Shown here: positions 3,253 to 59,149 of the stretch, piece by piece
How positions within the stretch are numbered: the first letter of the stretch is position 1
Layout of the letters: each line of letters begins with the position of its first letter
Assembly (NCBI GenBank): GCA_963733095.1
Contig: CAVTBV010000013.1
Location: forward strand, 439,705-503,704
Direction: 5' to 3'
From: Candidatus Bathyarchaeota archaeon
Lineage (GTDB): Archaea > Thermoproteota > Bathyarchaeia > Bathyarchaeales > Bathycorpusculaceae
Length of the DNA: 64,000 nt
The notes under the pieces: model-generated
The model's database searches: none
Seen by the model: only the letters and a program-made list of their open reading frames with translations
What the model was told of the DNA's origin: nothing
Position numbers and translations under genes: made by a program

Positions 3253-3779
3253 AATAAACTCCCATTATAATTCTTATATTGAATATTTTTAAATTTTGTG
3301 TCCTTTTTCCAAGTTAGCACTGAAAGTTATTGAATAAGTGATTATTATTTTGCAGGCTATAATCAATAAAACTGGAAAACTTGGTAGAAACGAGTTGGTT
3401 TGTATATGATAAGCTCCAGTTACATAGAGTTATATTCTATTAAGAAAATAACAGTTTTGATTGTAGAATGCAATAAGGAGAAGCGAATTTTGAGCAGAAA
3501 TTCTGAATTGATTGATTTTCGATTGCCAAAAGAAAAATCATGGTGCGTTAGAATAGTTGAAGGTGAATTATTAGACGGTAAAGTCAGAGCAAAACAATGT
3601 TCACAATGCAAGCACTCTTGTAATTTGGTTGCCACTGGATGTGGGAATTCAAATTCAATGCTGTACGGTTGTTCTGCAAGCAAATGTACTCATTTACTCA
3701 TACACGTTAAGTATACTTCTGCTTTTCTTCAATGAAGGTTATTCAATCCATATTTGAGGTAGGTGATGAAGAATTGAAA

Positions 3780-9575: not shown

Positions 9576-9733
9576 AGAAAACAAAATTTCTTGTTTTCTT
9601 CCTCTTGGTGATTATCTATTGTTACGGATTTCTTTTCAGAAACACTTGTCTAGAGCGACTGCTAAAGGTGAAGCCTAAGAAACCGAAGGCTACCGAATTA
9701 AAGCTTGATCTGCAAAAGTGCATCTCAGGCGGC

Positions 9734-10120
9734 TCACTTCGGGGACATCATGTTGCCCAACAATTCGTTCAAGGGCGGCATGCTTATTGGTTCATCTTCC
9801 ACTATCTTTCCGTTGACGAGACGGTAATACGTGAGAACTCGGGCAGAGGCTTTTTTCCCGCTGGCAAGGTGGAAGTTCATTATGCCCCGAAAAACAACCG
9901 AATCGCCTTCAGCTACTAAATCCAAGATTTCAAAATCGCGTGCCGGCGCAGTGGCTTTCAGACCTGAAATCACAGTCTTGAAGCCAGATCGGTCGGTGAC
10001 GCCCATGCTTGGATTAATATATTCAGACGCAAGCAATTCGTCGATAAGGTCAACATTGCCTCCGCTCAAAATTTCTTTGATGAATCTGCGGACAATGGCT
10101 TTGTTTTCATCAGTTGTCAT
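9734..10120 (-). CDS. SnoaL-like ester cyclase / NTF2-family protein
   Basis: ENKAIVRRF, LVAEGD.VV.R, YRLVNGKIVE. Confidence 0.88.
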   Translation of the reverse strand: MTTDENKAIVRRFIKEILSGGNVDLIDELLASEYINPSMGVTDRSGFKTVISGLKATAPARDFEILDLVAEGDSVVFRGIMNFHLASGKKASARVLTYYRLVNGKIVEDEPISMPPLNELLGNMMSPK

Positions 10121-10270
10121 TAAAATTTCTCCTGTACCTTGAGTGGGTCGCGAAGTCAATATAACTGTATTGGGTTACATTTCGTTACCAACATTGACAA
10201 AATAATTTTTTGTGTGCGCGAACGGAAAGATACGATACACTAAAATTAATTCCTGAGTGGAAGAATTGTG

Positions 10271-10295
10271 TGGTGGACCGGACCGTATTCAGACC
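10271..10295 (-). repeat. tRNA-Val 3'-end fragment (att-like copy)
   Basis: GGTCTGAATACGGTCCGGTCCACCA vs tRNA-Val 3' end GGTCCGAATCCGGCCCGGTCCA (19/22). Confidence 0.7.
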
Positions 10296-10321
10296 CTAAT
10301 GGGTATGGGTCCCTGAGGCAG

Positions 10322-10365
10322 AATTCTAAAAAAACGAAAATAAATTCTAAAAAACTGAAAATAAT
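10322..10365. repeat. Tandem ~21-bp AT-rich duplication, flanked by GGGTATGGGTC direct repeats (10301, 10391)
   Basis: aattctaaaaaaacgaaaata / aattctaaaaaactgaaaata. Confidence 0.7.
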
Positions 10366-10465
10366 TGAAAAAAAATAGCTAATCGTTCACGGGTATGGGT
10401 CTCTTTTTGACTTATCCCCAAACTGGCATAAGTTCTTGTTGGAGCCTAAGTAGAAAAGAACCGTA

Positions 10466-10493
10466 TGGCGCTGGATGTGGGAATCCTTCCCAC
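10466..10493 (-). repeat. tRNA-Ser-like 3'-end fragment
   Basis: GTGGG-AAGGATT-CCCAC-ATCCAGC-G-CCA: 5-bp stem, 7-nt loop, 7-nt acceptor strand, G73, CCA. Confidence 0.55.
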
Positions 10494-10548
10494 TATTTTT
10501 CCGCGGGTTATTACCTTTTTCCATGGTCGGTTTATTATTTGACATGTG

Positions 10549-10560
10549 TGGTAGCCCGGG
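10549..10560 (-). repeat. tRNA-Gln/Met-like 3'-end fragment
   Basis: CCCGGGCT-A-CCA; short match. Confidence 0.45.
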
Positions 10561-10614
10561 AGTTACCGTTCTCAGACTGTAATTTCTACCGAAATTTCCC
10601 TTTTTTTAGTTTTA

Positions 10615-10642
10615 TGGTGGGATCGCTAGGATTTGAACCCAG
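10615..10642 (-). repeat. tRNA (Pro-like) 3'-end fragment with intact T arm
   Basis: CTGGG-TTCAAAT-CCTAG-CGATCCC-A-CCA. Confidence 0.8.
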
Positions 10643-10895
10643 CCCCAAGTGGAGTTAGGCGATATGGGTATTTTGGATACTTCGTGGATGTTCTTTGCAG
10701 CAGTACTATTGCTACAAAAATTAAGGTAATAACTCCAGACAGAATAAAAATTGCTGAGCTAAACGTTGAGGTCAAATCGTCACCCATAGCTGAGTTAGCC
10801 ATGTTAACAAGAACAAAGTACGAGCTTACTATCAATATCAGGACAACAACAAGTATGATAGCCAAGATGCCCCAACTAAGCCCTTTACTGTTCAT
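10626..10895 (-). CDS. Small 2-TM membrane protein (C-terminus runs into tRNA fragment)
   Basis: Two hydrophobic helices. Confidence 0.6.
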   Translation of the reverse strand: MNSKGLSWGILAIILVVVLILIVSSYFVLVNMANSAMGDDLTSTFSSAIFILSGVITLIFVAIVLLQRTSTKYPKYPYRLTPLGAGFKS

Positions 10896-11050
10896 CTAAC
10901 ATTGGCTCCAAAATCTATCAATGTTTTGCGGATTTAAGACTTATCTTTATGAAAACTTTAGCTGAAATTCATAAATGTATTATCCAAAGTTGGTCATTAG
11001 AAGATGAAGCTGAATAAACATGGGAACCACATACTATAGGTGAATAAAAA

Positions 11051-11212
11051 ATGGGATTAGAAATGGTAGCATTTAAAGTCGTTATCGCTGGGAACACCAT
11101 TGAAGTTGTTACATTAGGTGACGCAAAGCAAGCTCTACGACAAAAAGAAGCTGAGTTACGACAAAAAAGAAATAGACAACGGTTTGCAAAGGATATAATC
11201 AAGCGGGAATAA
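11051..11212 (+). CDS. 53-aa hypothetical protein
   Basis: AGGTGA SD then ATG; MGLEMVAFKVVIAGNTIEVVTLGDAKQALRQKE...; below ORF-track cutoff. Confidence 0.45.
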   Translation: MGLEMVAFKVVIAGNTIEVVTLGDAKQALRQKEAELRQKRNRQRFAKDIIKRE

Positions 11213-11321
11213 GAAATACATCAACGTTGCAGCATAAGACATTGAACGTTAGCTCAATTTAGTTACAAGTTAGTGCGCTAAAATATATCGAATTTTCACC
11301 GGTTTTCTTGAGGTGTGATGA

Positions 11322-11699
11322 TCAATCTATTGAGTTTGCTTCTCTTTTCATTCTCTTCTTGGCAATAGCTTCTGCCCTATCAAGGATTTCCCTAATCTTT
11401 TCAATTTGTTGATTAGGTGCTTCAACTGATTCCAACGAATCAAATATAGCCTGCAATTCAAGTTCAAGCGGAAATAGGCTTCTTTGCTTTATATAGGTTA
11501 CTAAAGGCTCAAGCTCTTTATGCAATATCCGCTCAATTCTGCCAGATAACACCATTTCATCAATAATCTTAAGCATGTCTTCTTTAGATACGCCCAATCT
11601 CTGTACACCGTAGGTGATTAGGTCGGTTTCCTTTGTGTTTCCATAGGTGCACAAATAAGAAATGATTTTCTGCTCCAAATTCGAAAACGATTTTTCCAT
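11322..11699 (-). CDS. Winged-helix-like hypothetical protein
   Basis: LEQKIISYL...IDEMVLSGRIER. Confidence 0.6.
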   Translation of the reverse strand: MEKSFSNLEQKIISYLCTYGNTKETDLITYGVQRLGVSKEDMLKIIDEMVLSGRIERILHKELEPLVTYIKQRSLFPLELELQAIFDSLESVEAPNQQIEKIREILDRAEAIAKKRMKREANSID

Positions 11700-11859
11700 G
11701 TTAATGCCCGTTTTTCGTTTGTCTGGAGGCAAATTTTTGTCTTCATAATATAAGGAGGGCCTTCTATTAAAGAGGCTTCGCAAAGTTGCCTCTGTTCAAA
11801 ATTGTTGTCATCCATTAGGTCTTTTGAATAAATCCTTAATATGAAGTGCATGGAGATTG

Positions 11860-12050
11860 TGCCAAAGGTCCAGGAAGCAGCCAAGAACGTCAAGAAAGTC
11901 TATGGATATTTTAACAATCACTTTCATGGGTACGTCCCTGAGAATTGCCTGCAAATGATTGAATTATTGGGCTTAACTACTGAGCAGCAGAAGATGGTTA
12001 AGGAAAAATCTAAAAGCAAACAAGCGCAGCTAGGTTCTTTTTTTGGATAA
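11860..12050 (+). pseudogene. DUF72-family C-terminal fragment
   Basis: KKVYGYFNNHFHGYVPENCLQMIELLG; N-terminus absent. Confidence 0.75.
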
Positions 12051-12159
12051 CGAACTATTTACCAGCAACGCGCTTTTGATAATTCAAATATACCCTCTGC
12101 TGAACTGCCTGTTAGTTTCAACCCTTGCTTTATTAAACAAATCAAGCTAAACGCCGCGC

Positions 12160-12330
12160 ATGATTGATTTATCTAGACCCTGTGATGCTTGCGGCAAATA
12201 CATAGGCGGCGGGTTCCATTGCTGCCAGAACTGCCAGATCTACTTCTGCTTCTACTGCTCACTTCAACTTCCAACAATTCAAAATACAATAAAGAGAAAA
12301 TGCCCTATGTGCAATGGAAAATTCGAGTAG
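12160..12330 (+). CDS. 56-aa RING/C1-like zinc-finger microprotein
   Basis: MIDLSRPCDACGKYIGGGFHCCQNCQIYFCFYCS...KCPMCNGKFE: four CxxC pairs. Confidence 0.75.
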   Translation: MIDLSRPCDACGKYIGGGFHCCQNCQIYFCFYCSLQLPTIQNTIKRKCPMCNGKFE

Positions 12331-12495
12331 TTATTGACTTTTTCTTGATTTGCTTTCGGAACAGTGAGGGTTAAAGCAATTAAGACAGCCTTTAGGGAAG
12401 GTTTGGCAGAGCTGTTTTTTCTTGAAACCCCATTTTTTTCTCAGCTCATCAGCTTCAGCTTCTTGATCATATGACACGCATTTTGTTTTGGTCAT
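12331..12495 (-). CDS. 54-aa Cys-containing microprotein
   Basis: MTKTKCVSYDQEAEADELRKKWG...CQTFPKGCLNCFNPHC; stop abuts stop of convergent ORF. Confidence 0.5.
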   Translation of the reverse strand: MTKTKCVSYDQEAEADELRKKWGFKKKQLCQTFPKGCLNCFNPHCSESKSRKSQ

Positions 12496-12528
12496 CGAGA
12501 ATTCCCATTTAAATCAGCGCTGGAAACA

Positions 12529-12735
12529 TTGGCTTCGCCACCAACACCAAGTGACCTTCTGAAGCCAATGCTGAACTATGTGATGGAAGTTAATGGACAA
12601 ACAGTTGCAAAAGTTCACAGAAAATGGCCAACACTAAGAAACCAGATTAAATTCTCAATAACTGGATATCTTGATCATCGCCTAGTTATAGGCGCAGTAA
12701 TTGTTATTGAACACGTGTTAGCGGAAGGGAAATAG
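12529..12735 (+). pseudogene. LURP-one/scramblase C-terminal fragment
   Basis: VAKVHRKW..LRN....I...LDHRLVIGAVIVIE. Confidence 0.65.
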
Positions 12736-13841
12736 CGCGCCGCTTTGTCCCTAAATTAAGTGTTGAAGTAAGTCGGTGATACTGCTTTTTCATGTCTGCC
12801 AATCCTCTGTGCTGCCTCTCTGTTTAGCACTAAACAAAGAATGCTGCATAATGAATAGAACGTAACCTGCGCTAGTCCTCTGACCTTATTGTTAGCCATG
12901 CTAAACTGTGTCTTCAAAAAACTGTTAACTGCTTCAATCGGCGGTCTCTTATGATACTCCACCTTGTCCTCCAAAGATCCATAAGTCCTAAACTTCCTAT
13001 CAACTCGCAGCAAACCCTCCACATCCTTGCGATGATTAGCAGGATATGGAATAGTTGCCTTCTCCACAGCACACCTGAGCTTAGAATCGCTGTATTGGCT
13101 ATCCGCTACTACACTTCTAACTTTAGCTTTACAGTGTTTGAGAATTTCCTTGGCCTTTTCAAGTAGAGTCAGTGAATGTTTCTTTTCGTTTTGGTTTGCA
13201 GAGACGAAAACGTTTGAGAGAGGAAGCATTGTTTTGTGGTCGATTGATAGGTGCATTTTGTAGCCCAGTGCATATGATCGGCCAGATCTGCCAACTCTGG
13301 CTTGGGCATCTGAGAAGCCTATTTGGTTATCTGTTGGGTGACGTGTGCTCCAAGCCTTAATAAAAGATGCATCCAACACTACGTCCACTTCATTGCTTTG
13401 CTGGCTTTTTAGCAGTTTGATTACTTTTTGATCGATTATTTTGTTGAGGTTGTCTTGGCCTACTCGTTTGGAAAATCGGCTCATTACGCTTCGTGTGTAG
13501 CCTTTTTGGCTGTCTTTGATTAGGCAGAGCTTTCTAATTCTTAAATCGTTGTTTAGGATGCGGGTCATTTCTCTTAGGCTGCGTATGGCTTTCATTTTCA
13601 TTATTAAGAATGCTCGAAATAGTCCCAGTGGGTTTCTGGGTCGTCTTCCTGGGCCGCTTGCGTGGAAGCACTGTTTTATTAGGTTGTTACCAAAGCTTAA
13701 GTCTACGTTTTTGAAAAGGGTTTCAAGGGTCTCGTGTTCATCCTGTCTCGCAGGGATCACTTCCTTGTGTGATTGGTTCTCAATGATACGAGACCCAGTT
13801 TCTAGTTATAAGCTTTTCAATTTAGGGACAAGCCAGCGCGC
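12735..13841 (-). mobile_element. IS5/IS1182-like insertion sequence, apparently intact (~1.1 kb)
   Basis: TIRs gcgcgccgctttgtccctaaatt / aatttagggacaagccagcgcgc. Confidence 0.9.
12756..13760 (-). CDS. DDE transposase (DUF772 + DDE_Tnp_1-like)
   Basis: VLDASFI, GYKMHL, ADSQY, R..IE..NS.LK. Confidence 0.93.
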   Translation of the reverse strand: MIPARQDEHETLETLFKNVDLSFGNNLIKQCFHASGPGRRPRNPLGLFRAFLIMKMKAIRSLREMTRILNNDLRIRKLCLIKDSQKGYTRSVMSRFSKRVGQDNLNKIIDQKVIKLLKSQQSNEVDVVLDASFIKAWSTRHPTDNQIGFSDAQARVGRSGRSYALGYKMHLSIDHKTMLPLSNVFVSANQNEKKHSLTLLEKAKEILKHCKAKVRSVVADSQYSDSKLRCAVEKATIPYPANHRKDVEGLLRVDRKFRTYGSLEDKVEYHKRPPIEAVNSFLKTQFSMANNKVRGLAQVTFYSLCSILCLVLNREAAQRIGRHEKAVSPTYFNT

Positions 13842-13844
13842 TTC

Positions 13845-14282
13845 CTAAGTAGTTTCCTCAATATCTCGCCATTTCGATAGAGCATTCATAGCTCGGTCTC
13901 CCCGAACACTTGTTATTATTGCGACCAATATCTCTGCTGTCATTTGTGGTTGATTATAACTAGATTTGTTTTGCTTGACAGACGTACTATTGTCTGTATT
14001 TTTAGGCGTAATTGATCTTGCGTCGTTCATAGCTTTAGTTAATTCTTCAACCTTCTTTTTTGAAACAGTATTTCCTTCTTGAATAATAGCAGTTAGCCCT
14101 GTTGCAGACTTAATTCCAATCATCTTGAAACGATTCATCCATAATTCTCCAGTGCAGGTATATAGAACTGCTTGGTCCACCCAATTAAACAGTTGTTTAG
14201 GAAAAAAATTAGTATTAGTTATGAGTTGTTCAAGAGACGCGCTTGCAAGATTATGAATATTATCAATTTTCTCTTCCAACAA
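13845..14282 (-). CDS. Hypothetical protein (possibly fragment)
   Basis: 145-aa ORF ending at IS border. Confidence 0.5.
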   Translation of the reverse strand: MLEEKIDNIHNLASASLEQLITNTNFFPKQLFNWVDQAVLYTCTGELWMNRFKMIGIKSATGLTAIIQEGNTVSKKKVEELTKAMNDARSITPKNTDNSTSVKQNKSSYNQPQMTAEILVAIITSVRGDRAMNALSKWRDIEETT

Positions 14283-14523
14283 TCGTGACTCATGCCAAGT
14301 GTTTAATCATTCGTGATGAAAGCAATCTTTCACCGGAACAAACGCCTTACCTCTTTAAATTAAAAACTAATCTGTGAATCTACACTAAGCAGTAGTGGAG
14401 TCCTATCTGAAAGTAACCTGACATTAATAGCGTGCTTTGGGTTTCATATATAGTAGCTACTATTTATTTGAATAAACCGGGTTAGTGAAGTAATTTTACG
14501 GTTTGATTAAATTGGTGTTCTTT

Positions 14524-14766
14524 TCAAAACAATTCAAAGGCATATTTTTTTCTATAGACTAACACAGCTACAACAAGGATAGACATTAACACGAAAAGAA
14601 CCGCAAATGAAGGAAACTCGGGTATCGGCGGTGTGGGTTGTGGGACACTGCTGTCATTTAAGGGTCCATAAAACATGGACAAAGCTGATGCTGAAATCAA
14701 AACAGCTGCAGCAAGTATGAACCATTTGCCTATTGATTTGGAAACTGAACGTTTTTTTAATGTCAT
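14524..14766 (-). CDS. Minimal signal peptide + PEF-CTERM-like protein
   Basis: PPIPEFPSFAVLFVLMSILVVAVLVYRKK. Confidence 0.7.
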   Translation of the reverse strand: MTLKKRSVSKSIGKWFILAAAVLISASALSMFYGPLNDSSVPQPTPPIPEFPSFAVLFVLMSILVVAVLVYRKKYAFELF

Positions 14767-15010
14767 GTTTCCTCTATAATAATATCTTAAGGATCAATAT
14801 ATTTATTTTTTGCACTTGTCATTTCTTTGATAAGATTTTATCTACTGAAACTAAGTATGCGCTAAGTTTATTTAATCGGTTCATGGATAAACCATAAAAT
14901 TTTCAAAATTCGACTGCATAATTTAAGGTTATCCTGTTTATCGAGTATTTACATTCCAAACATTCAGCTTGTCAGATCTATTTTAAGATGGGATAATGTT
15001 ATAATGATAA

Positions 15011-16487
15011 TTGAGTACTATATTACATAAAGTGGTTAATTTGGAGGACCCCATTTTGCCAGAGTGCAGTAAGCACACTCCAGCTTTAACTTCACACTCG
15101 AGAGACATTCTCAAGAATTTCTTAGAACACATTGGAAATTTCTGCTTGACGCTTTCAGATGTAACAAACGATTACTTGTTTGAAGCTGAATATTGCTCAA
15201 ACGTAGAGAAGCTTGACCAACTCAAAGCGGAATTAGCTGGTTTCAAAGAAGACAACTCTGAAATCTATGATTGGGCAAAGCTTGGTTTCAATGGGGTGAC
15301 ATGCTTCTTTTACGGGAACAGAGATATCGCTATGGGGAGATATGAAACTGAGCATCTCGAAAGAGGAAGAACATTCTTGTTGGCTTTTGCTGAACGCGTA
15401 CCCCCGAAGGTAGCCGAGATTTTCCAAAAGAGCGGCGTCGATTTTGAGACTGTTGGAAAAAAGAACGCGTTTGAAATAAAGGCGTTTTCAATATTCTCAG
15501 TAGCGAGGGCACACTTGGAGCGAGGGGAATACGGTGAGGCTGCACGTAATTTTGAAGAATGCTTATCTTTGAGGATTCTGAATGGATTGGAAATTTATTC
15601 AGACATAGAACCTTTGAAATGGTATGCAAGAGGTCTAGATTTTCAGTATGAACAGGGAAAGTTTTCTGAGGCCGCCGATTCGTTCAGAAAAAGCTCTGAA
15701 CTCTATCAAAAAATTGCGGAAAAAGCGACCTTAACGGATGACATCTTTGAAGAGGGAAGAGCTAATTCTATGAAAGTTGTTTGCGACTGACGAGCAGCCG
15801 TTTGTACAGCTCTCCATAATAAGGTTGGAACTAGCCCCGGCTACCAGAGTTTCCGTCAAGACATAAATACCGTTACAAACGAATATAATCAGGAGGTAAA
15901 GTCCATTTCAAGTGTAAGTGAAATATTGGCTTTGAACGAGATTGCCAAAAGCATTGAGAAGATAATGGTTTATGCACAGAATTTGAGAGCGTCTTCAGAA
16001 TTATTTAGCATAGAGAGCCAAGTTTTTGAAAGACTTTACGATCAAGGAGACACCATAAAAACTGAAATATTGACTTGTATTGATGGATTGAACGAAATCC
16101 AAAAAAACATGGGAACAACCCTACAAAGCCTAACGGCAAGTATGGACCGAGACAGATATCGGAGGAGCCTGCGAAAGATGGTTAATTTATGTAATAATGA
16201 CCTCATACCTGCATATCAAAAAGTAGGTGGAAGATTTAGTAAAAAATCGAACACAAATTGAGGTCGCAGTTGAGCAGAAGAGAGCAGTAGGAGAGAAAGT
16301 TCCAGAAAAACCTCAAGTTAAAGAACTTTTAGATGACGCGAGTAAGGAAGTTAATGAAGCCAGGAGCTTAAAGACCCGACTCAAGGGCTGCTATGAATAT
16401 GGACTGAATTTCTTAGAAGATGCGAAGCCTTATATTGAAGCGCTTGGAAATGCTGTGGGATTCATCTTAAAATGTGTTGGTAAATAG
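15011..16487 (+). pseudogene. TPR-like helical protein, disrupted
   Basis: TPR-like GEYGEAARNFEECL; in-frame TGA at 15788 with open frame continuing to 15926 ORF; frameshift near 16227. Confidence 0.7.
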
Positions 16488-16540
16488 GCACGTTTTAATC
16501 GCATCCAAGGCTGAGCCGTACCAGACTTAAACCCCAAACC

Positions 16541-18167
16541 AGACTGTGTTAAAACTTGGAACTAATTTCTAATGGCATCGATCATTCGAGCTATTGCCTG
16601 GAAGTCTCATTCCCTTGTTTTTACTTCTTCACCAAACTTACTAGCGCCTCAACTCCAAAAATATTGATAATCCTTCTTATATTGTAAGCAAGCATTGTAA
16701 ATCCGACCTCCCCTCTAACCTTACGCAAACCTTTCAAGAGCACATAGCCCTAATTGAAAGCACGCTTAATAGTTCCAAACGGATGTTCCACTATCATCCG
16801 CCTCAACCGAAGCTTCTCTCTACCCTCAAAACTATGCAGTCGCCTCCTAAGGCGATCAACAGCACCATCAAACTCTCCTCTAAACATATACCTTCCACGC
16901 TTATTCCTAGTACATTTACTCCTCACAGAACAGCAAGAGCAAAGCGCTGTCCGATATAACCTGCCTTTAAGACCACTTTCTCGACCGCCCTGCTTCCAAA
17001 AAGGCAACTCCTCTCCAACAGGACAAACATACACGTCCTTACCGATATTGTAAATGAATCTGTCAGAATAAAACTCAGGCGCAGGAACCCCAACCTTCTT
17101 GTATGGATTCAAAGCAGCAGGAATAGGCATGAAAACCCTTATGCCATTAGCCTCACAATCAGAGATGTCTTTCTCAACATAGAATCCTTTATCGCTTACA
17201 ACATCAAGCTCATCAACACCCAAAGTCTCCTTGGCAGCTAACGCATCCTTAGTAAGCTGGTGATGATCAGTCGAGATATTTATCACGTCATAATCAACGA
17301 TAAGATGCTTTTTTGCATCAACTGACGTTTGAATGTTGTAGCCAACTTCAAGCCGTTGGCTGTCTACTCTCATTAAACGGCTGTCTGGGTCCACAAATGA
17401 AACTTCCTTCTGGCCTGTTGCCTTCATTTGGCTTTGAATCTGCTCATATCGCAGCTTTTCTTCTTCAAGTTTGCATATTTTCTCCTTAAGCTCATCGACA
17501 TTGACGCTTTCATCTTCAGCTGAATCAGCCGTATCGTTTTGGTCCATTTCTTTGAGGTACTCTGCGATCTTTTCCTCTGTTTGTTTGAGTCTTAAAGCGA
17601 TTGTTTTCTCGTTGAGGTTGTTGCTCCTAGAGTTGACAGCTTTGAATTTGGTGCCATCAATAGCTACTATCTGGGCGCCGTAAAGATCCAAGCTCTTGCA
17701 GAGATACACGAATTCTTTGAATACTCCTTTGATGCAGTCAATGTTGTCTTTTCTGAAATCAGCGATGGTTTTGTGGTCTGGCGCCAACTTTTTCGTTAGC
17801 CACATGACTTCAACGTTGCGGTGGCATTCTTTCTCCAATTTCCTGCTAGATCTCACCAGGTTGAGGTAGCCATAAACGTAGAGCTTGAGCAGATCTGACG
17901 GATTATAGGAAGGTCTTCCAGTGTCAGCGGGGATTGAGTGCTTGAAACCAAGCTTTTCCAGGTTAAGGCTGTCTACAAAGGCGTCGATAAACCTGACGGG
18001 GTTTTCTTTTTCAACGTACTGATCGATGGTATTGGGAAAAAGCACTGTTTGGTCTCGGTGGGTTCCGTTTACGTGTTCGCTCATGGCTTTTCAGTTGCTC
18101 TAAGGATAGTCTAGATTTAAGGTTAACGGTGAATAGCTTGCAAAGAAAGAGACTTTTCACACAGTCT
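16541..18167 (-). mobile_element. IS1182-family element inserted ~10 bp downstream of tRNA-Val
   Basis: TIRs agactgtgttaaaa / ttttcacacagtct. Confidence 0.88.
16621..18084 (-). pseudogene. IS1182 transposase with premature TAG at 16750
   Basis: GRPSYNP, SSRKLE, AIDGTK, DKGFY, VEHPFGTIK; frame continues GYVLLKGLRKVRGE...AYN to 16621. Confidence 0.88.
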
Positions 18168-18177
18168 GTAATGGGAG

Positions 18178-18252
18178 TGGACCGGGCCGGATTCGGACCG
18201 GCGACCTTCTGCACGTCAAGCAGATGTCCTAACCAGGCTAGACGACCGGTCC
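18178..18252 (-). tRNA. trnV: tRNA-Val(GAC)
   Basis: Cloverleaf: acceptor GGACCGG/CCGGTCC, anticodon arm TCTGC-TTGACGT-GCAGA, T arm GCCGG-TCCGAAT-CCGGC; CCA not encoded. Confidence 0.95.
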
Positions 18253-18331
18253 ACACTTTTGCAATGTCTTCTACGTCATTTTCCTATATAGGCGCTCTGA
18301 TTCTTCAATAGGCGCTTTGTTTCTGAACATC

Positions 18332-19462
18332 TTACTTTCGCTTCCTAAATACTTTATGTCCTGCAATTTCAGTGTGATATTCAAAGCCTATTTCCATCAG
18401 TTTAATAGCGTCTTCTAGTTCATCAGCAACCTTAACGATAAAGCCGTCAGTACCCTTCGATAAGTAAAGCATCTTGTCAATGTGAACATAGGTTTCTGTT
18501 GAGTTCTGTGATTTATGGCCTAGAATAATTTGCACTCTTTCGCGGTCATGGAAGTTATGCAGTTCAGTTGTAGCTTTCCAATGTCGGGAGGTATGGAAAT
18601 GAATTTTTAGTATGTTTGGATTAGCGATTTTATCAGCTATTCTTTTGCGTTGACTGAAAAAGCAAGCTCGCAAGCCACTTGAATTAGCAAAGATTCTTTC
18701 GCCTTTTCGCCTTATGTTAGCAAGCATGCTCATGGATTTCTCGGTTAAAGGTAGGATTCTGCCATTGCTTCGTTTCTCTGCTTTAATGTTGACTTTACGC
18801 TGCACAAAGTCTATGTCTGCCCATGTTAACTGTGAGATTTCACCGCATCTGGCGCCTGTGTCTTTGAGTATTTGGCAGAATGTAGCGGTCTTTTTTCCTA
18901 AACCGGCTATGAGCTGGTCGATTTCTTCCTCAGTTGGAATATAAGGAACTTCACTATCTCGATAATAGGTTGGCTTTTTCCAGTAGATTCCATTAAAATC
19001 AAACCATGTGGCAAGCATACTTGCGGTTAATCTTTTACTTGCTTGCTTTATCTCCAAGTCAGCTAAGACAGCTTTTGTGCTTTCAGGGTTAAAGAGATTC
19101 GCGCCTTTTTTAAGCAAAAGCCCAAGATAGATTTGATAGTTTAGTATGGTTGTTTTTGCTTTTCCATCGTTCTTTAATTGTACTAGTAGCTTCTCGATTT
19201 GTGGGGCTGCTTTTAACTCGTATTCTGTTGGTGTGTGGTCCTTCTCCGCACAGATTTTTATTTTCTGTGCTGAAACCATTTTTTTCGCTCCGGATACGCT
19301 TAAATGGTTACTTTCCTTATTGACGCTAACACTATTTAAGACTGTGTTTTGGTCCCAACGGTGTCCATATTCGGCACATCTATACCTTTGAACTGGCTTT
19401 TCAGATAAAGCGCTAGCTTGGTGCGGGTCGGGTTCCATCAAGATAAACCCGTTTGCTTCCAC
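18332..19462 (-). CDS. Tyrosine recombinase/integrase
   Basis: TGARCGE, K, HTSRH, LGH, Y all present; C-terminal KLMEIGFEY...FRKRK extension. Confidence 0.95.
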   Translation of the reverse strand: MEANGFILMEPDPHQASALSEKPVQRYRCAEYGHRWDQNTVLNSVSVNKESNHLSVSGAKKMVSAQKIKICAEKDHTPTEYELKAAPQIEKLLVQLKNDGKAKTTILNYQIYLGLLLKKGANLFNPESTKAVLADLEIKQASKRLTASMLATWFDFNGIYWKKPTYYRDSEVPYIPTEEEIDQLIAGLGKKTATFCQILKDTGARCGEISQLTWADIDFVQRKVNIKAEKRSNGRILPLTEKSMSMLANIRRKGERIFANSSGLRACFFSQRKRIADKIANPNILKIHFHTSRHWKATTELHNFHDRERVQIILGHKSQNSTETYVHIDKMLYLSKGTDGFIVKVADELEDAIKLMEIGFEYHTEIAGHKVFRKRK

Positions 19463-19496: not shown

Positions 19497-21836
19497 CTAA
19501 GGACCCTCCGATTCATAGCTTGTCATTTCTGAATGGGCTGGCCTCCAAACTGCTTTAGGATATTCCTTTTGCAATCCTTCTAAACATGTAGTACAACGTA
19601 GAATGGTGTCTTTAGTAGGTGTCAACAATTCCTTAGTGACATTTAGAGCATGTTTGCAGTATGTTCCTTCACATTTAGAGCCTTGAGGAATATCTTTTAC
19701 AAACCAAACATATTTTTCCTCTATTGATTGGTTACTGCCAATATGCTTCTTTTCACTGGCGTCCCCCCTACCTACTATTTTATTTTTATCAGTATATTCG
19801 GGGGGGACGTTTGTGAAATGACTTAATTCTGCCTCCGTTTCCGCTGGGATTTCTTCAGTTTCCAGGAGGTTTTTTAGTTCTATGTTAAGTAGTGTCCAAC
19901 CGTCTTTTTCGGGGGTGTGCCTTGCAGGTCCGTAAGGATTTGTTGTTTCTTCCTTTTTTTCATATTCTACAAGCCCCAAGTATTCCATTTCTTTTAGTTC
20001 TCGCCAACAAGTAGCCAAAGGAATTTTTGCATTCCTAGCAATTGTTGAGGTAGTAAACTGTGCGTTTGGTGGGGTCAACATATTCTTAATGACCGCTACT
20101 CTGTTGGGCACGCATGTGTCACGTGCTACACGTTTGACTGTTTCAAGGTCTTCTTTTGTTACATTTTTACGGCCTCTGATTATAGCAAGGCTGTAAGCTA
20201 ACTTCATGAGTTGTTTAACTAGTCTTGTTGGGTACTCTGTTACTGGTTGAGCTGCATCGTTTATCTCGAATTTCCAGAAATTAATCGGGACAGGTGTTCT
20301 AAGGATTGCCACACTAAGGGATATATCTTCAATTAGAAGCGAATACATTTCGGAAATCGTTGGGGTATCATCAAAATTGAGGTATTTTAGAAATCTTGAG
20401 GTGGCATCGATTAATTCATCTCTCATTTGTTCTTCTTTGCCAAGGTTTTGAAGGGCTTTATGTGTGGCTTTTTTACTATCTGGATGGTGTCTTATCTTTA
20501 GAAACCTCTCGCCTAGTTGCAAGTACATTTTCGTAAAAGTGTCAATGGCCGGTGTGCAAGCGATAATTAAACCTATATTGGCTTCTATTCTAACGGGTTG
20601 AGCTGAAGTTCCAAAAGCAAACTCTATGTATCCATCATAAAGACTTCTTAATTGACTAAATATTTCGTCTCTGTCCTCTCTGCGTTTACCAAGTAAAACA
20701 GTGAAATCTTTGATAACTAGAACTTTTTTGTCAATTTCTTTTAGTATTCCTAAAACAGGTATCGGTTTGCCCTCTTCGTCTTTGTCAACTTTTCCACTAA
20801 TGAAGGTGTGTGCTGTTACGCTGTCAAGAGTGTAAATGTCATCATTTTTTAAGCTGCGTACTAATTCAGTTTTTGTTCCACCGCTTGGACTTATCAACGC
20901 CATCCATAACGGATCACCCTTTATTCTTCGGTCAACTGCTGCGCTTAGAATTACATCAATAACTTCCTCATCCGAACCGATAAACAACCATTTTTTGAAG
21001 ACATCTTTAAGTTCTGATAGTTTGAGTTGATTTTCCTCTTTGTCACGAGCTATGTATCCAGTTGCGTTTTCAACCATCCGAACTAGGTCATTGTCATTCA
21101 TTGGTGGTTTGTTTTTTTGGTTCCAGTCACGCATTTCTTTTAAGGCAGTATCAAAGTTAAAACCTTTAACGCCTACTAAGAAGGTAGCGTATTTTATTCC
21201 TTGAGAATGTCTTATTCCTGCAGGTACTCCATTTCTCATTTGTTCATATGTGATTTTTTGTTTTACATCTTTTCCTAAATAAGGCTTCACCGCTTCCATA
21301 AAAACAGAGTATTCTATTCTTGCGATTGGTACATTCTTGGAGATAACGTATATTCCTGTTTTTTCTTCTTTTGTCGTTAAATCTTTGTAAGTGATTGGTG
21401 TACCCGGTGCAACTAAGTATTGATTATTTGCTCTTATTTCTCCCGATCCGTCTTCTTCTCCAGGAATATGTACGGTCTTGTTTGGAACTTGCTCACCACA
21501 TACGCAAAAATATTTATGAGGTAATCCTCTCCGTGGGCTTGTTACCTCAAAAGTTTCGGGTAAGACCTTGCTTAATAGATCGTACATTTCTTTTTTGTCA
21601 GTATCAATTAAAACTAAGAAGTCTTTACCTAAAATTCCCCATCGGTTATGTGGTTGTCTACCTTGGCAGTATTTACAGAAACATGGAACAAAACTCTCCA
21701 AGTTTTCTGGGCTGTAAGGATGGTTTTGAAAATCAAACTCAAAAGCTGCCTTATCAGGTCCAATTTTCAAGAAGCGATCAACTGATAACTCCGTTTCTTT
21801 TAGGCGTTGCACTAGTATAGTTTGCTGCTCGTTCAA
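19497..21836 (-). CDS. Replication protein: prim-pol + PriCT-like + P-loop ATPase/helicase + wHTH
   Basis: LVLIDTD, HKYF, GEIRANNQYLVAPG; G.RH...WN..N.PP; SPSGGTKTE, VLVIKDF, GERFL, R..KQL. Confidence 0.85.
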   Translation of the reverse strand: MNEQQTILVQRLKETELSVDRFLKIGPDKAAFEFDFQNHPYSPENLESFVPCFCKYCQGRQPHNRWGILGKDFLVLIDTDKKEMYDLLSKVLPETFEVTSPRRGLPHKYFCVCGEQVPNKTVHIPGEEDGSGEIRANNQYLVAPGTPITYKDLTTKEEKTGIYVISKNVPIARIEYSVFMEAVKPYLGKDVKQKITYEQMRNGVPAGIRHSQGIKYATFLVGVKGFNFDTALKEMRDWNQKNKPPMNDNDLVRMVENATGYIARDKEENQLKLSELKDVFKKWLFIGSDEEVIDVILSAAVDRRIKGDPLWMALISPSGGTKTELVRSLKNDDIYTLDSVTAHTFISGKVDKDEEGKPIPVLGILKEIDKKVLVIKDFTVLLGKRREDRDEIFSQLRSLYDGYIEFAFGTSAQPVRIEANIGLIIACTPAIDTFTKMYLQLGERFLKIRHHPDSKKATHKALQNLGKEEQMRDELIDATSRFLKYLNFDDTPTISEMYSLLIEDISLSVAILRTPVPINFWKFEINDAAQPVTEYPTRLVKQLMKLAYSLAIIRGRKNVTKEDLETVKRVARDTCVPNRVAVIKNMLTPPNAQFTTSTIARNAKIPLATCWRELKEMEYLGLVEYEKKEETTNPYGPARHTPEKDGWTLLNIELKNLLETEEIPAETEAELSHFTNVPPEYTDKNKIVGRGDASEKKHIGSNQSIEEKYVWFVKDIPQGSKCEGTYCKHALNVTKELLTPTKDTILRCTTCLEGLQKEYPKAVWRPAHSEMTSYESEGP

Positions 21837-31236: not shown

Positions 31237-31647
31237 GTGGATAAAAAACCAATAACCGTCGCCGAAGCAGGAAGGCTAGGCGGAAGAAAAACCGCGGCAA
31301 CCCATGGACGCGAGTTCTACGAAGAGATAGGACGCAAAGGCGGACAAAAAGTTTCTAAAAATCATGGTTCAGAGTTCTACAGTGAAATCGGCAGTAAAGG
31401 TGGCAGTGTACGCGCCAAACAGCATGAAGGCTCTAAAGAAGCCCGGGGCAAAGTCAGCTTAGAGGAAGCAGGCCAACGCGGAGGGCAACGAATGAAACGC
31501 TTAATCGATTTAGGAAAAAAAGCGAGAAAGAATAGCTGGGATTGTGCTAAGATAAAAATGGGTTGTGTGAGTGATATCTCCACTTTCGCTTGGGCTCAAT
31601 CCCTCCCCAGTCAAGTGACAAGATGTTTCTATCAGTCTACACGATAG
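31237..31647 (+). CDS. KGG-repeat general stress protein (C-terminal frameshift extension)
   Basis: EAGRLGG, EIGRKGG, EIGSKGG; paralog of 44941. Confidence 0.85.
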   Translation: MDKKPITVAEAGRLGGRKTAATHGREFYEEIGRKGGQKVSKNHGSEFYSEIGSKGGSVRAKQHEGSKEARGKVSLEEAGQRGGQRMKRLIDLGKKARKNSWDCAKIKMGCVSDISTFAWAQSLPSQVTRCFYQSTR

Positions 31648-31706: not shown

Positions 31707-31762
31707 AACCCGTTTTGCAGAGTAACACGCTAAATAAAATAGGAAATAGGAATTTAGTTCTT
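31707..31762. repeat. ~55-bp intergenic repeat, copy 1
   Basis: cgctaaataaaataggaaataggaattt identical in 55268-55323. Confidence 0.8.
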
Positions 31763-31763
31763 A

Positions 31764-32873
31764 GCGCGCTGCCTTGTCCCGATATTACGTGTTGAAATAG
31801 GTTGGTGACACTGCTTTATCATATCTTCTTATGTTTTCGGCTGCTTCTCTGTTTAGAACCAAGCACAGGATGCTAAAGAGCGCGTATGAAGCTACGTTGC
31901 CCAAGCCCCTAACTTTGTTGACGGTTAGGCTGTACTGCGTCTTTAGGAAACTGTAAACTGCTTCAACATGAGGCCTCTTATGACACTCAATCTTCTCGTC
32001 TTCTGGACCAAAGGTACGAAATTTCTTATCCACCCTTAGCAAGCCCTCAACATCACGTTTCTGGTTTGCACGATATGGAATAACCGCTGCATTGACAGCG
32101 TTTCTGAGTTTGCCGTCACTGTACTGACTGTCTGCTATCACGCTTTTCAACTTGGCCGCAGACTGCTTGAGAATCAGCTCAGTTTTCTTCAATATATTGA
32201 GCGAGTGTTTCTGCTCGTTCTGGTTGGCAGAAGCAAAAGTGCAGGCTAAAGGAAGCATAGTCTTTGAATCGATTGATTAGTGAAGCTTATAGCCTAGTCC
32301 GAAGGATCTGCCTGAGCGTCCGACTCTGGCTTCTTTGTCTGAATAGCCAGTCTGGCTGTCCAATGGATCGCGTGTGCTCCAGGCTTTTATGAAGGAAGCA
32401 TCAAACACGGAATCTACGCATGCTGCGCCGTTTTGTTTCAAGAGCTTGACAACTTTTTCTTCTATTATTTTGATGAGGCAGGTTTCTCCGAGTTTGCGGA
32501 TGAATCTGCTTAGAACACTTCTTGTGTAGCCTTTCTGGCCTGGTTTGATGAGGCAAAGTTTTCTGAGCCTTAGATCCGTGTCTAGGAGTCTGGTCATTTC
32601 TCTTAGGCTGCGAATGCCCTTCATTTTCATGATGATGAATGTTCTGAAGAGGCCTAATGGGTTTCTGGGATGTCTGCCTGGTCCAGAAGTGTGGAAACAA
32701 CCGCGTAAAACGGTTTGGGCAAAGTTTAAGTCGATGTTTCGAAAGAGGGTTTCTAGGGTCTCGTGTTCATCTTGTCCCGCTTGGGGTCACCTCCTAAGCT
32801 TGGACGTTTCTCAAAAAATACGAGACCCCGACTAAAACATAAACTTTAGTAATTTCGGGACAAACCAGCGCGC
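31764..32873 (-). mobile_element. Second IS5-like copy, transposase pseudogene
   Basis: TIRs gcgcgctgccttgtcccg / cgggacaaaccagcgcgc; in-frame TAA at 32277 and 5' frameshift. Confidence 0.9.
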
Positions 32874-32932
32874 TTGCGACTTTTGGGTTTCTGAAAAAAG
32901 AAGAAATAGTAGTTGTCATTTAACAAATCTCT

Positions 32933-57135: not shown

Positions 57136-57350
57136 GGTTTTCCCTAAGCGCCGCTCTTTGCAGTAAGTATAAGGCGGTTCTCGGACCTCTGGATAATTGT
57201 GTCGTTTGCCTTTGTCGGCTCGGTGTTCATGCTTGCGGCTTTTAAAACCCGAAACCGTAAACTCGGCTTCACTAGACAAGATAGAAGCCTCCAAAAAAAG
57301 AAAAAGAGAATTGTGTACGGAGTGGAGACATCACCAAAAAATTGTCGTGC
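57136..57350. repeat. ~215-bp non-coding repeat, copy B
   Basis: Colinear with 35962-36177. Confidence 0.9.
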
Positions 57351-57490
57351 CTATATAGGTGCTTCGTCTTGTTTGATGTTGCATTATTTGATTTTCTAGC
57401 TTGTATTAAACCATTTCCCAACAGCTTGCCCACGAAGATAGAAGTTTTAAAGCTCCCCCCCACATAATATTGAGATATGGTTAAATTGCC

Positions 57491-58741
57491 ATGGCTGCAA
57501 CGGACGAAGTGCTCAAGTTACTGGTAGAATTCATAAACAAAAACTCTAACGTAGTTGATTCCCAATGGGACCGCCGCATGAGCCCAAGACTCCTGTTTAA
57601 CCCCTACTCAGAAAAGTTTGAAGAAAGAAAAGTCGCAGCCCACTACTTTCTGCTTGCCGCCTCAATCCTCGATGATACAATCGTTGGATACCCCGAAAAT
57701 GCCCGTATGCTTCTCGTCTACTTGCATGAAGCCTTTGGCAACGCATTCTTTGAAATCAAAAAGGCTCATCTATTTGAAGAGGAAATCGTAAAAGCAGATT
57801 TCTATCATGACTTAGGACCAAACAAAAAAGCTGCCTCAGAAATTCTTGCACAAATCAACCTCTTCGTTAGGCTTAAAGCTGAACGTAACCTTCTGCAGTA
57901 TGCTCAAAAATTCTCAAAACCAAAAGACCTAATCGAAGACCTCGCCCAAAACATCCCAGCCTTGGCTGGTCCACATAAAGACAAACTATGGATTTACATG
58001 CGGTGGATGGTGCGTCCCCAACCTGACCTACAAATCTACGACCACTTTCTGCCCGAAGATCTCTACGTACCGCTTACCAAAGAGAACGCCAACGTTGCCG
58101 CTAGTTTAGGTGTTATCGGAAATGCATCACCCTCCATCTGGAGAGATGAACAAACTGCTGGCGAAGCAAGACAAAAACTTACATATTTCGCCAAACGCCT
58201 CTTCCCCAAAGACCCTGCGAAAGTAGACTATCCCTTTTTCTTGTTGGGACGTTGGCTTAAACAGAAAACCCTCAACCGCTACACCCTCAAAACCGCCCTC
58301 GATTTCCTCGACCGCATGCAAAAAATCACAGGACAATCCCAATCGTACTACCAAAAGATGAGCCGCTACAAGAGCGGATGGGAAAAAAAGACCGCCCTAA
58401 CATTGCTAAGAATGCATATTCCTTACGGTTATGAAACAATTAGTTTTCCCTTGCCAAACGAAGTGTACACGCCTGACTTCATCTTAGAAAAGACGGTTCA
58501 GGGCAGAAAAATTATTCTCGAGCCGCATTTTGAGATGACAAAAAAGCAAGCGAGAAAGTATTCTTTGTTCAAACGTACCTATGGCCACAAATTTGTTCTA
58601 ATCCTTTTGTTAAAAAACGATTTAATCCCTCTGTACCATCAGCGCAAAATTTTGACAGATGATGTTTGTGATGATGTTTGGCCGATTGAATTCGTTCATC
58701 TGTTGGCAGAGAAGATTAGGCGGGGAACCTACGGCCAATAG
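57491..58741 (+). CDS. DUF2400 (HhH-GPD-like) domain fused to PD-(D/E)XK endonuclease
   Basis: K..IYMRWMVR..PDL, L.VPL, DPAKVDY..F; C-terminal YKSGWE...YE...YTPDF...ILEPH. Confidence 0.85.
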   Translation: MAATDEVLKLLVEFINKNSNVVDSQWDRRMSPRLLFNPYSEKFEERKVAAHYFLLAASILDDTIVGYPENARMLLVYLHEAFGNAFFEIKKAHLFEEEIVKADFYHDLGPNKKAASEILAQINLFVRLKAERNLLQYAQKFSKPKDLIEDLAQNIPALAGPHKDKLWIYMRWMVRPQPDLQIYDHFLPEDLYVPLTKENANVAASLGVIGNASPSIWRDEQTAGEARQKLTYFAKRLFPKDPAKVDYPFFLLGRWLKQKTLNRYTLKTALDFLDRMQKITGQSQSYYQKMSRYKSGWEKKTALTLLRMHIPYGYETISFPLPNEVYTPDFILEKTVQGRKIILEPHFEMTKKQARKYSLFKRTYGHKFVLILLLKNDLIPLYHQRKILTDDVCDDVWPIEFVHLLAEKIRRGTYGQ

Positions 58742-58780
58742 CCTAGTTAATAAAGTGGTGGACCAGTGTGGAGGTGACTT

Positions 58781-59149
58781 GTGATGGCAGAGGATAACTT
58801 CAAACCCTTGGTCGTTTGGCTCATCTTGAACGGTAAACCAGAGAAAGCACTGGACCTTTTAGCAAAAAAATTCAGGGTTAATGTTCCTGACTTAAAAGTT
58901 GGGTTGCCTAAAGGACGTAAAATCACCGCGTACGGCTGCTACACACCAAAAAACCAGACTATCACCGTCCTAAACAGCGACGTATTAGCCAACCCATTCG
59001 TTATACTCCACGAATTCTACCATCACCTACGCAGCAAATCCGTGGACAGAATGCATAAAGGCACTGAGCGAGGAGCTGACCAATTCGCCCTGGAATTCCT
59101 GATGCACTATCAATTAGCTTCAAAAAAAGCCCAAGAGGGCACTCAATAA
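58781..59149 (+). CDS. Zincin-like metallopeptidase
   Basis: VILHEFYHHL...E..AD.FA. Confidence 0.85.
   Translation: MMAEDNFKPLVVWLILNGKPEKALDLLAKKFRVNVPDLKVGLPKGRKITAYGCYTPKNQTITVLNSDVLANPFVILHEFYHHLRSKSVDRMHKGTERGADQFALEFLMHYQLASKKAQEGTQ

Follow-up and report, generated by a model that had tools for sequence, protein, structure and literature searches.

A stack of four tRNA-like 3′ ends downstream of tRNA-Val(gac) in a Candidatus Bathyarchaeota genome, read as probable attachment-site modules of integrative elements

We analysed a 64,000-nt stretch of DNA (C13:439705-503704; hereafter the window) from the genome of a Candidatus Bathyarchaeota archaeon, which comprises 2.84 Mb in 16 contigs (C), has 43% G+C and is 95%-complete. 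A covariance-model search placed a single tRNA gene in the window, tRNA-Val(gac), and downstream of it, packed into 370 nt, lies a tight stack of four fragments that resemble the 3′ ends of different tRNAs. The stack, the DNA on either side of the tRNA gene and the repeat families to which the fragments belong are the subject of this study. Related genomes are denoted by G and metagenome loci by L.

Results

A compact stack of tRNA-like 3′ ends

Re-reading of window positions 9800-11200 located all four co-oriented strings on the minus strand where an earlier, sequence-only reading of the window had reported them; that reading was also correct that the local tRNA-Val gene lacks CCA while all four fragments carry it. 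Each fragment forms the end of a longer unit, in which an arm precedes the tRNA-like core. The features of the locus are listed in Table 1, where att stands for attachment site, attL and attR for its left and right forms, P arm for an element-derived arm and IS for insertion sequence.

Table 1. Features of the tRNA-Val(gac) locus in window coordinates
Feature	Position	Strand	Description
Unit 1	10613..10697	-	Degenerate type A arm (..CTAACTCCACTTGGGGC), then Pro-like core; nhmmer C13:450401-450317, E 1.5e-6
Fragment 1 core	10615-10642	-	Pro-like, ending ACCA
Unit 2 (S2)	10542..10608	-	A-tract, GGG, arm GGTAGAAATTACAGTCTGRGAACGGTAAC, then Gln-like end
Fragment 2	10549-10562	-	CTCCCGGGCTACCA, Gln-like end of unit 2
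Block B (units 2 and 3)	10465..10606	-	Repeated at C13:76026-76166
Unit 3 (S3)	10466..10547	-	Arm AATAACCCGCGGAAAAA..GTGGGAAGGATT, then Ser-like core
Fragment 3 core	10466-10484	-	ATTCCCACATCCAGCGCCA, Ser-like
Unit 4	10271..10401	-	Val-type P arm, then Val core; read as attR of tRNA-Val(gac)
Fragment 4 core	10271-10295	-	Val-like, CCA-ended
Arm repeat GACCCATACCC in unit 4	10301-10311 and 10391-10401	-	Twice before fragment 4
tRNA-Val(gac)	18177..18252	-	3′ end ..GGTCCAC followed by TCCCATTA, no CCA; read as attL with element-derived trailer
Island DNA, ~7.9 kb	10296..18176	-	Between tRNA-Val gene and fragment 4
Transposases of two IS elements	12756-13760 and 16750-18084		Pfam
IS inverted repeats	12734-12757 / 13819-13842		
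Tyrosine integrase	18332-19462	-	PF00589 1.9e-20; phrog_1 integrase
PrimPol-like protein	19497-21836	-	Prim-Pol 1.2e-4

As a test for chance, 38 distinct 17-nt tRNA 3′ ends were compared with both strands of the genome, with reversed queries as the control. Outside tRNA genes, 43 sites matched at 15/17 or better versus 10 in the control, and 27 sites genome-wide matched at 14/17 or better and then continued with CCA versus 3 in the control; three of these 27 fall within 365 nt at the stack. Same-strand clusters of at least three sites (at least 14/17) were found twice, and not at all in the control. The second cluster (C9:109.6-109.9k) includes two sites just 9 nt apart, which probably represent one tRNA-like core. 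The four-fragment group is real and not a chance cluster. Two public DNA runs (small shares 0.11 and 0.09; possibly not independent of the sample from which the assembly came) have contigs that cover 9582-10478 (1 difference) and 10318-10535 (0 differences) and so extend from the flank across fragment 4 and into fragment 3, as far as 10535. No RNA run was among those listed for the region.

The fragments were matched to the genome's own tRNA 3′ ends. Fragment 2 agrees with tRNA-Gln(ttg) at 14/14 positions including CCA, though at only 12/17 when the comparison is anchored at the discriminator; fragment 3 agrees with tRNA-Ser(gct) at 18/19 (anchored, 15/17) and fragment 4 with the local tRNA-Val(gac) at 20/23 (anchored, 15/17 plus CCA). 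Fragment 1 reaches 27/30 with tRNA-Arg(ccg) (anchored, 14/17 and then CCA) and 18/19 with tRNA-Pro(ggg). Its best match, at 23/25, is the tRNA-Pro(tgg) of two genomes of another family in the same order (G040 and G084), so that its description as Pro-like holds but its source looks foreign. Fragment 3 had been taken for a 28-nt piece equivalent to tRNA positions 49-76, with the T stem kept and the loop replaced. We find that its tRNA-like part spans only ~19 nt, and that GTGGGAAGGATT belongs to a conserved non-tRNA arm, which occurs in relatives without a tRNA end. A 14-nt exact repeat, CTGGATGTGGGAAT (plus strand), joins fragment 3 (10471-10484) to positions 3635-3648, inside the open reading frame (ORF) at 3400-3735; the latter copy might be due to chance or represent a further Ser-like relic.

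The displaced 3′ end of tRNA-Val(gac)

The tRNA-Val(gac) gene of this genome now reads ..CCGGTCCAC followed by TCCCATTACAG, and the sequence of fragment 4 is CCCATTAG-GGTCTGAATACGGTCCGGTCCACCA. In 29 relatives from the same genus, the gene ends in ..CCACCA (20 genomes), CAC followed by TC.. (5), CA followed by TTCTCC (3) or CCT (1). The ending found here is that of the five relatives with CAC and TC.., whose trailers are similar, and the ending with TTCTCC is a second trailer shared by three further relatives. In the three closest relatives, the gene ends in ..GGTCCACCA, exactly as fragment 4 does. Fragment 4 is what was originally the CCA-bearing end of the tRNA-Val(gac) gene and was displaced by an insertion; the gene itself now ends in the other arm of the inserted element.

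The interval between the gene and fragment 4 has the layout of an island. An intact tRNA-Val lies at one end and a co-oriented 3′ copy at the other, relatives with an uninterrupted tRNA-Val(gac) end in the same sequence as the displaced fragment, and element arms recur at tRNA-Val in other genomes, the trailer in five and the arm together with the core in two of five genomes searched. One of these two is G056, whose tRNA-Val lacks CCA; a homologous arm (GGGACNCANACC../GGGACTCAGACC..) lies 19 kb downstream of that gene and is followed by a Val core and CCA. The other, G042, has the arm, Val core and CCA as well. In the G056 element, the arm after the tRNA, GGTCTGAGTCCC, is the exact reverse complement of the arm before the displaced core, GGGACTCAGACC, and the two are candidate recombinase-binding inverted repeats around the core. 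No displaced 5′ tRNA-Val fragment was found upstream, either by 14-mers with at most 1 mismatch or by blastn-short. The SnoaL gene beside fragment 4 was tried as a marker of synteny and set aside, as its orthologues in six relatives have different upstream DNA and no tRNA.

Besides two IS elements, the island contains a TPR protein, a DUF72 fragment and small ORFs. No joint across the island was present in the contigs of the two public runs, whose coverage is low and patchy. In run X1, a single contig leaves out 12803-13807 and has 8 other letters in its place, which weakly suggests that the run includes a related sequence without the IS of 12734-13842 (the joint has 30 nt on its shorter side, at a likeness threshold of 85%).

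A second insertion upstream of the tRNA gene

On its other side, tRNA-Val is separated by ~39 kb (window 18253-57350) from the upstream flank that is native in G010 and that maps to window 57352-58825 with 79% identity. This insertion is bounded by direct repeats of CCTATATAGG at 18283-18292 and 57350-57359, which correspond to the TATA-like box upstream of the tRNA, and the tyrosine integrase and PrimPol-like gene stand at its tRNA-proximal end. An integrase homologue occupies that position in one of 29 relatives (G014). A search of genome contigs for loci related to the window integrase returned one unrelated bacterial locus. Across the whole genome there are 20 matches to PF00589, 17 of them above the cut-off, and several adjoin tRNA genes.

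Two further observations concern the inside of the 39-kb insertion. A copy of the type A unit described below lies at 31546-31611 on the plus strand (E 1.2e-8) and adjoins a degraded copy of the IS of 12734-13842 (76-84% identity over 31762-32875). Just inside the far junction, at 57300-57345 on the minus strand, GGTGATGTCTCCACT resembles the type A motif and is followed by ACACAATTCT; the latter also follows fragment 4, at 10258-10267.

Units 1-3 belong to repeated families

Units 1-3 are members of repeated arm-plus-core families found elsewhere in the genome and in its relatives. One of these families, type A, is made up of ~75-nt units in which an A-tract and GGGG are followed by TGCGGGTGAYATCTCCAYTT, a T arm and an acceptor strand that varies, and has the consensus AAGAAAAAAGGGGnnnTGCGGGTGAYATCTCCAYTT, ~6 nt, GGGTTCAAATCCC and the acceptor strand. 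A profile of this type finds 31 copies in the genome at E<1e-4, among which fragment 1 is a weak member (E 1.5e-6). The cores of the copies match varied tRNAs, including Leu(tag) at 18/18, Ala(tgc), Cys, Pro and Arg. The Ala-type copies carry the tRNA gene's own flank and no CCA, and therefore point to an origin at the level of DNA.

The 19-nt motif of these units occurs 19 times in the genome with at most 2 mismatches. It is present in 29 of 61 related genomes, among them six other genera, against 1 control match in all, and at least 120 metagenome stretches hold it exactly, from sediment, wetland and peat. Viral contigs gave 0 exact matches to it. In 80 metagenome loci (L089-L168) holding 81 type A sites, most sites continue with a T arm and acceptor strand, and ~13 look Phe-like by eye.

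Units also occur joined to one another. A two-core unit, in which a type A/Pro-like part is followed by arm E (GGATTCGCTTAA..) and an Arg-like core, lies at C9:39.9k, C13:14.1k and C12:505.7k and, in a relative, at G003:887.7k; homology among its copies stops at CCA. At C12:170.6k, a unit like S2 abuts a type A unit. Block B, a 142-nt stretch made up of units 2 and 3, is matched by C13:76026-76166 with 82% identity (E 2.6e-32), and the homology starts at the A-tract of unit 2 and stops exactly at the GCGCCA of the Ser-like core. A Cys-like fragment precedes this second copy, which stands at the end of a tRNA-Ser island, downstream of tRNA-Ser(gct) (C13:94368-94451). The same tRNA gene has a fresh attR at C13:87134, an 18/18 match that shares with the gene exactly the part from the T loop to CCA, with an integrase (87424-87885) 290 nt off. 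A comparison of the sequence after fragment 3 with that after this attR found no homology beyond the core.

On its own, the S2 profile finds three copies in the genome at E<1e-4. Unit 2 is kept in G002, G003, G016 and G019, and in G002 it sits 650 nt downstream of tRNA-Gln(ctg). None of five copies in relatives ends in CCA; their ends read GGGTTACTA or are more diverged. The arm of unit 3, AATAACCCGCGGAAAAACCGTGGGAAGGATT, is conserved and non-tRNA, and is found in G001 and G023 without a tRNA end.

CCA is encoded in most tRNA genes

The genome has full GNN/UNN/CNN isoacceptor sets of tRNA genes, which we take to be typical of archaea. CCA is encoded in 29 of its 41 tRNA genes, including Gln(ttg), Ser(gct), three Pro genes and Arg(ccg), and thus in the matches of fragments 1-3; for fragment 4, the tRNA-Val(gac) genes of 20 of 29 relatives encode it. 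Of the 12 genes without CCA, one runs off the end of a contig and another matches only in part. The CCA ends of the fragments are accordingly best explained by CCA-encoding tRNA genes and not by RNA capture. The CCA-less Ala(tgc), Arg(tcg) and Val(gac) genes adjoin integrases, and most CCA-less genes continue with CT past the discriminator, which fits replacement of their 3′ ends by element DNA.

A probable record of successive integrations

The stack probably consists of att modules that remain from tyrosine-integrase elements with the 3′ parts of tRNA genes as their targets; it lies at the far end of an island in a tRNA-Val(gac) hot spot. Each module appears to be composed of an element-derived P arm and a tRNA core that extends from the T-loop region through the discriminator and CCA. 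Homology between repeated copies breaks exactly at the end of the core, where a site-specific junction is expected. The units recur at tRNA-associated arrays, and sequences of this form are the expected remains of site-specific recombination between the T loop and the 3′ end of tRNA genes. The sequence-only reading had suggested either a multi-att cassette or a record of a tyrosine-integrase element retargeting between tRNAs. The outline of that proposal is supported, with fragment 4 as an attR and fragments 1-3 in arm-plus-core families; a functional multi-att cassette is improbable.

Successive integrations, nested or in tandem, would have brought the modules together. Such accretion is known for integrative and conjugative elements and cis-mobilizable elements. 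The bodies of the elements would then have been lost, or older relics may have travelled as part of the right end of whichever element followed. Earlier targets would in that case be preserved, as in a fossil record, in the order Pro, Gln, Ser, Val, and the Pro-like core would possibly record an earlier host.

Several observations weigh against this account. No integrase was found between 10296 and 18176 by PF00589 or PHROGs (in the PHROGs search of 20 island ORFs, the integrase was the single match), and the neighbouring integrase (18332-19462) belongs to the separate insertion upstream of the tRNA. Beyond fragment 4, likeness to the native flank in the closest relatives extends over only ~15 nt. 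The DNA downstream of the tRNA-Val of G010 maps to a different contig (C3:125465-126779), and fragment 4 may therefore mark a junction inside a larger composite rather than its outer end. The bodies between successive cores measure just 66, 83 and 195 nt, so that several precise losses, or the carriage of relics, would be needed, neither of which was observed. As the four cores are unalike, a shared T arm cannot explain cross-integration here. Finally, the 19-nt motif shows far stronger conservation than is usual for att arms, and integrases make up only 2 of 114 ORFs flanking type A sites in the metagenome loci.

Other readings of the units

With less confidence, the arm-plus-core units might form a modular family of sites, in which the near-invariant arm (AAAAAGGGG..TGCGGGTGAYATCTCCAYTT) would serve as the recognition site of a conserved protein, the tRNA T-arm/acceptor core would be swappable and the integrase would act in trans; we regard this as unlikely, if worth stating. 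If it were true, integrase-less accessory segments could enter many different tRNA genes throughout an archaeal order; the family would then be an archaeal counterpart of integron cassettes or tycheposon cargo, and the stack a set of used junctions.

Also unlikely is that the units are active sites of a cassette-like system with an integrase in trans, in which short segments with genes but no integrase would insert at tRNA genes or at earlier units by way of the conserved arm and a T-arm core, the stack being a row of nearly empty junctions. Type A sites do occur in co-oriented arrays, 220-1800 nt apart (for example C9:109218-120783 and C9:256902-267304). Downstream of tRNA-Ala(tgc) in G003, a complete genome, stand four Ala-like cores in one orientation, all within 9.5 kb; the type A profile finds three of them at E<1e-4 and one weakly (E 7e-3). 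Genes for TBP, an SSB-like protein, Alba, a glycosyltransferase and a CBS protein lie between the cores, and none of the 10 scanned ORFs of at least 80 aa in this array is an integrase. (Alba and TBP are encoded by relatives.) The genes that adjoin type A sites are diverse and accessory, including methyltransferases, GNAT acetyltransferases, nitroreductase, flavodoxin, PIN, HEPN and PQQ propellers, and the scarcity of integrases among them and the spread of the 19-nt motif over other genera would fit a system of this kind. Gene orientation relative to the metagenome sites is, however, near random (33 same to 23 opposite upstream, 31 to 27 downstream), the run contigs contain no excision joint at their low and patchy coverage, the viral contigs have no match and no free form was seen, and circles of 66-195 nt would be physically implausible.

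As to a functional multi-attP cassette, that is, one element with alternative att sites of which the last was used at the junction, we hold it to be improbable. The last core fits the upstream tRNA in both multi-unit copies (Val in the window, Ser at C13:76k), and multi-core blocks have been copied as units within the genome and into G003. Against this, the inner cores decay, as seen in the loss of CCA from every S2 copy of the five in relatives; fragment 1 reaches no more than 14/17 (anchored) with any tRNA of the genome; no units follow tRNA-Val on the attL side; and the island has no integrase.

A role in RNA that has nothing to do with integration, for instance as small RNAs or as tRNA-like signals for processing or stability, is very improbable for the units. 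Many contain T-arm-like hairpins, they often lie just past genes (the median distance from a same-strand ORF ahead of them is 90 nt), and in 20 of the 31 type A copies a GGGG resembling a Shine-Dalgarno sequence and an NTG precede the motif. They have no 5′ acceptor strand, however, and RNAalifold gave no consensus structure on the 31 type A copies. Neither the stack (folding z -0.51, no structural signal) nor twelve single units (z -1.97 to +1.32) folded better than shuffles, and Rfam had no match at the stack and nothing relevant at E up to 10 within 10100-10900. The ORFs from the NTG run for 1-41 aa, and in metagenome locus L167 the NTG-started ORF stops after 36 aa, ahead of a downstream integrase. 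The orientation bias is weak, and the cores copy specific tRNA genes along with their flanks.

Two related ideas were rejected. A mini-tRNA formed by pairing of GCGGGTG with the acceptor strand gave 4-6/7 pairs by hand in three core types and was dropped because this is the level expected for G+C-rich strands. The units are also not 3′ halves of split tRNAs, since there are no 5′ halves or leaders (by reasoning only).

Capture of mature tRNA ends, proposed earlier on the ground that all four fragments end in discriminator and CCA while the local tRNA-Val gene does not, would proceed by reverse transcription of CCA-tailed tRNAs. It has lost its support and is scarcely credible. CCA is gene-encoded as described above, an outcome that the earlier reading itself had named as removing the support, and a search of the 95%-complete genome for an RVT_1 reverse transcriptase gave none. 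The fragments are 3′ parts of only 14-28 nt, each joined to a conserved arm, and Ala-type copies carry gene flank in place of CCA. Retro-capture of mature tRNA, as in the Mauriceville retroplasmid, would be marked by untemplated CCA and a reverse transcriptase, and neither was seen here.

Discussion

tRNA-targeting integrative elements and their relics are a known kind of system, and we compared the locus with the five closest known systems. Islander-type islands are bounded by a regenerated tRNA gene and a displaced 3′ fragment (PMC4383910). The present island resembles them in its intact tRNA-Val, in the co-oriented CCA-bearing 3′ fragment 7.9 kb away and in a trailer made of element DNA; unlike them, it has no integrase, and fragments of three other tRNAs are stacked beside the displaced one. 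Archaeal integrase families show target switching between tRNAs among relatives, and tandem integration (PMC8371274). Co-oriented att arrays downstream of a tRNA gene, as at the tRNA-Ala of G003, and related arms with different cores are shared features, whereas the bodies between sites are here 66-195 nt and successive cores come from four tRNAs. In Prochlorococcus, tycheposons and tRNA-seeded islands contain partial tRNAs and degenerate elements scattered inside (10.1101/2020.12.28.424599). Growth at tRNA genes, partial tRNAs, an integrase with a primase/polymerase module and accessory cargo are common to both; the host here is an archaeon, and a strongly conserved 19-nt arm stands on many cores, whereas no such shared arm appears in the tycheposon account consulted. 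Accretion, the route by which we think the stack may have grown, agrees with the tandem integration and target switching of the archaeal integrases and with the scattered partial tRNAs of the Prochlorococcus islands.

Integrons have been reported in Archaea (PMC9668308). As in integrons, short recombination sites punctuate arrays of accessory genes that have no integrase of their own. Unlike integron sites, the sites here copy tRNA ends and give no attC-like folded-strand signal, and the orientation of the genes beside them is not uniform; these two properties of integrons, an attC-type fold and uniform cassette orientation, were absent, and no search was aimed at IntI or attI. In SSV-type 'suicidal' integrases, attP lies inside the int gene (PMC7253208). 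An NTG and a GGGG resembling a Shine-Dalgarno sequence ahead of a tRNA-like core would be expected of an int(N) stub, and in this the type A units are similar. They differ in the shortness of their ORFs (1-41 aa) and in that the integrase ORF at L167 is in a different frame by coordinates; an ORF running through the att core into an integrase was seen neither in the 20 of 31 copies with a start motif nor at L167.

Against this background, a family with a near-invariant arm, cores of many tRNAs and a distribution across an archaeal order appears undescribed in the literature searched. The tight stack of cores from four different tRNAs likewise appears new there. The interest of the stack lies mainly in the repeat families to which it led. 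These arm-plus-tRNA-core families are abundant in the genus and in sediment, wetland and peat metagenomes, and, if active, they would explain how integrase-less accessory genes gather at tRNA genes in these archaea and would serve as precise markers for delimiting islands. At the tRNA-Val locus of this uncultured archaeon, a composite hot spot, both sides of the gene have been remodelled, among other things by an insertion in the promoter region of the tRNA. A simple test, whether most tRNA genes encode CCA, was enough to remove the tempting interpretation of these fragments as captured mature tRNAs.

The repeats may also break assemblies. Contig C3 ends within an att-like core, CGCCCGGTCCA (C3:126300-127501, L209), and this repeat may be the cause of the break; the G010 DNA from downstream of tRNA-Val maps just beyond the core. 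The core adjoins an ORF that, by eye, looks like Alba.

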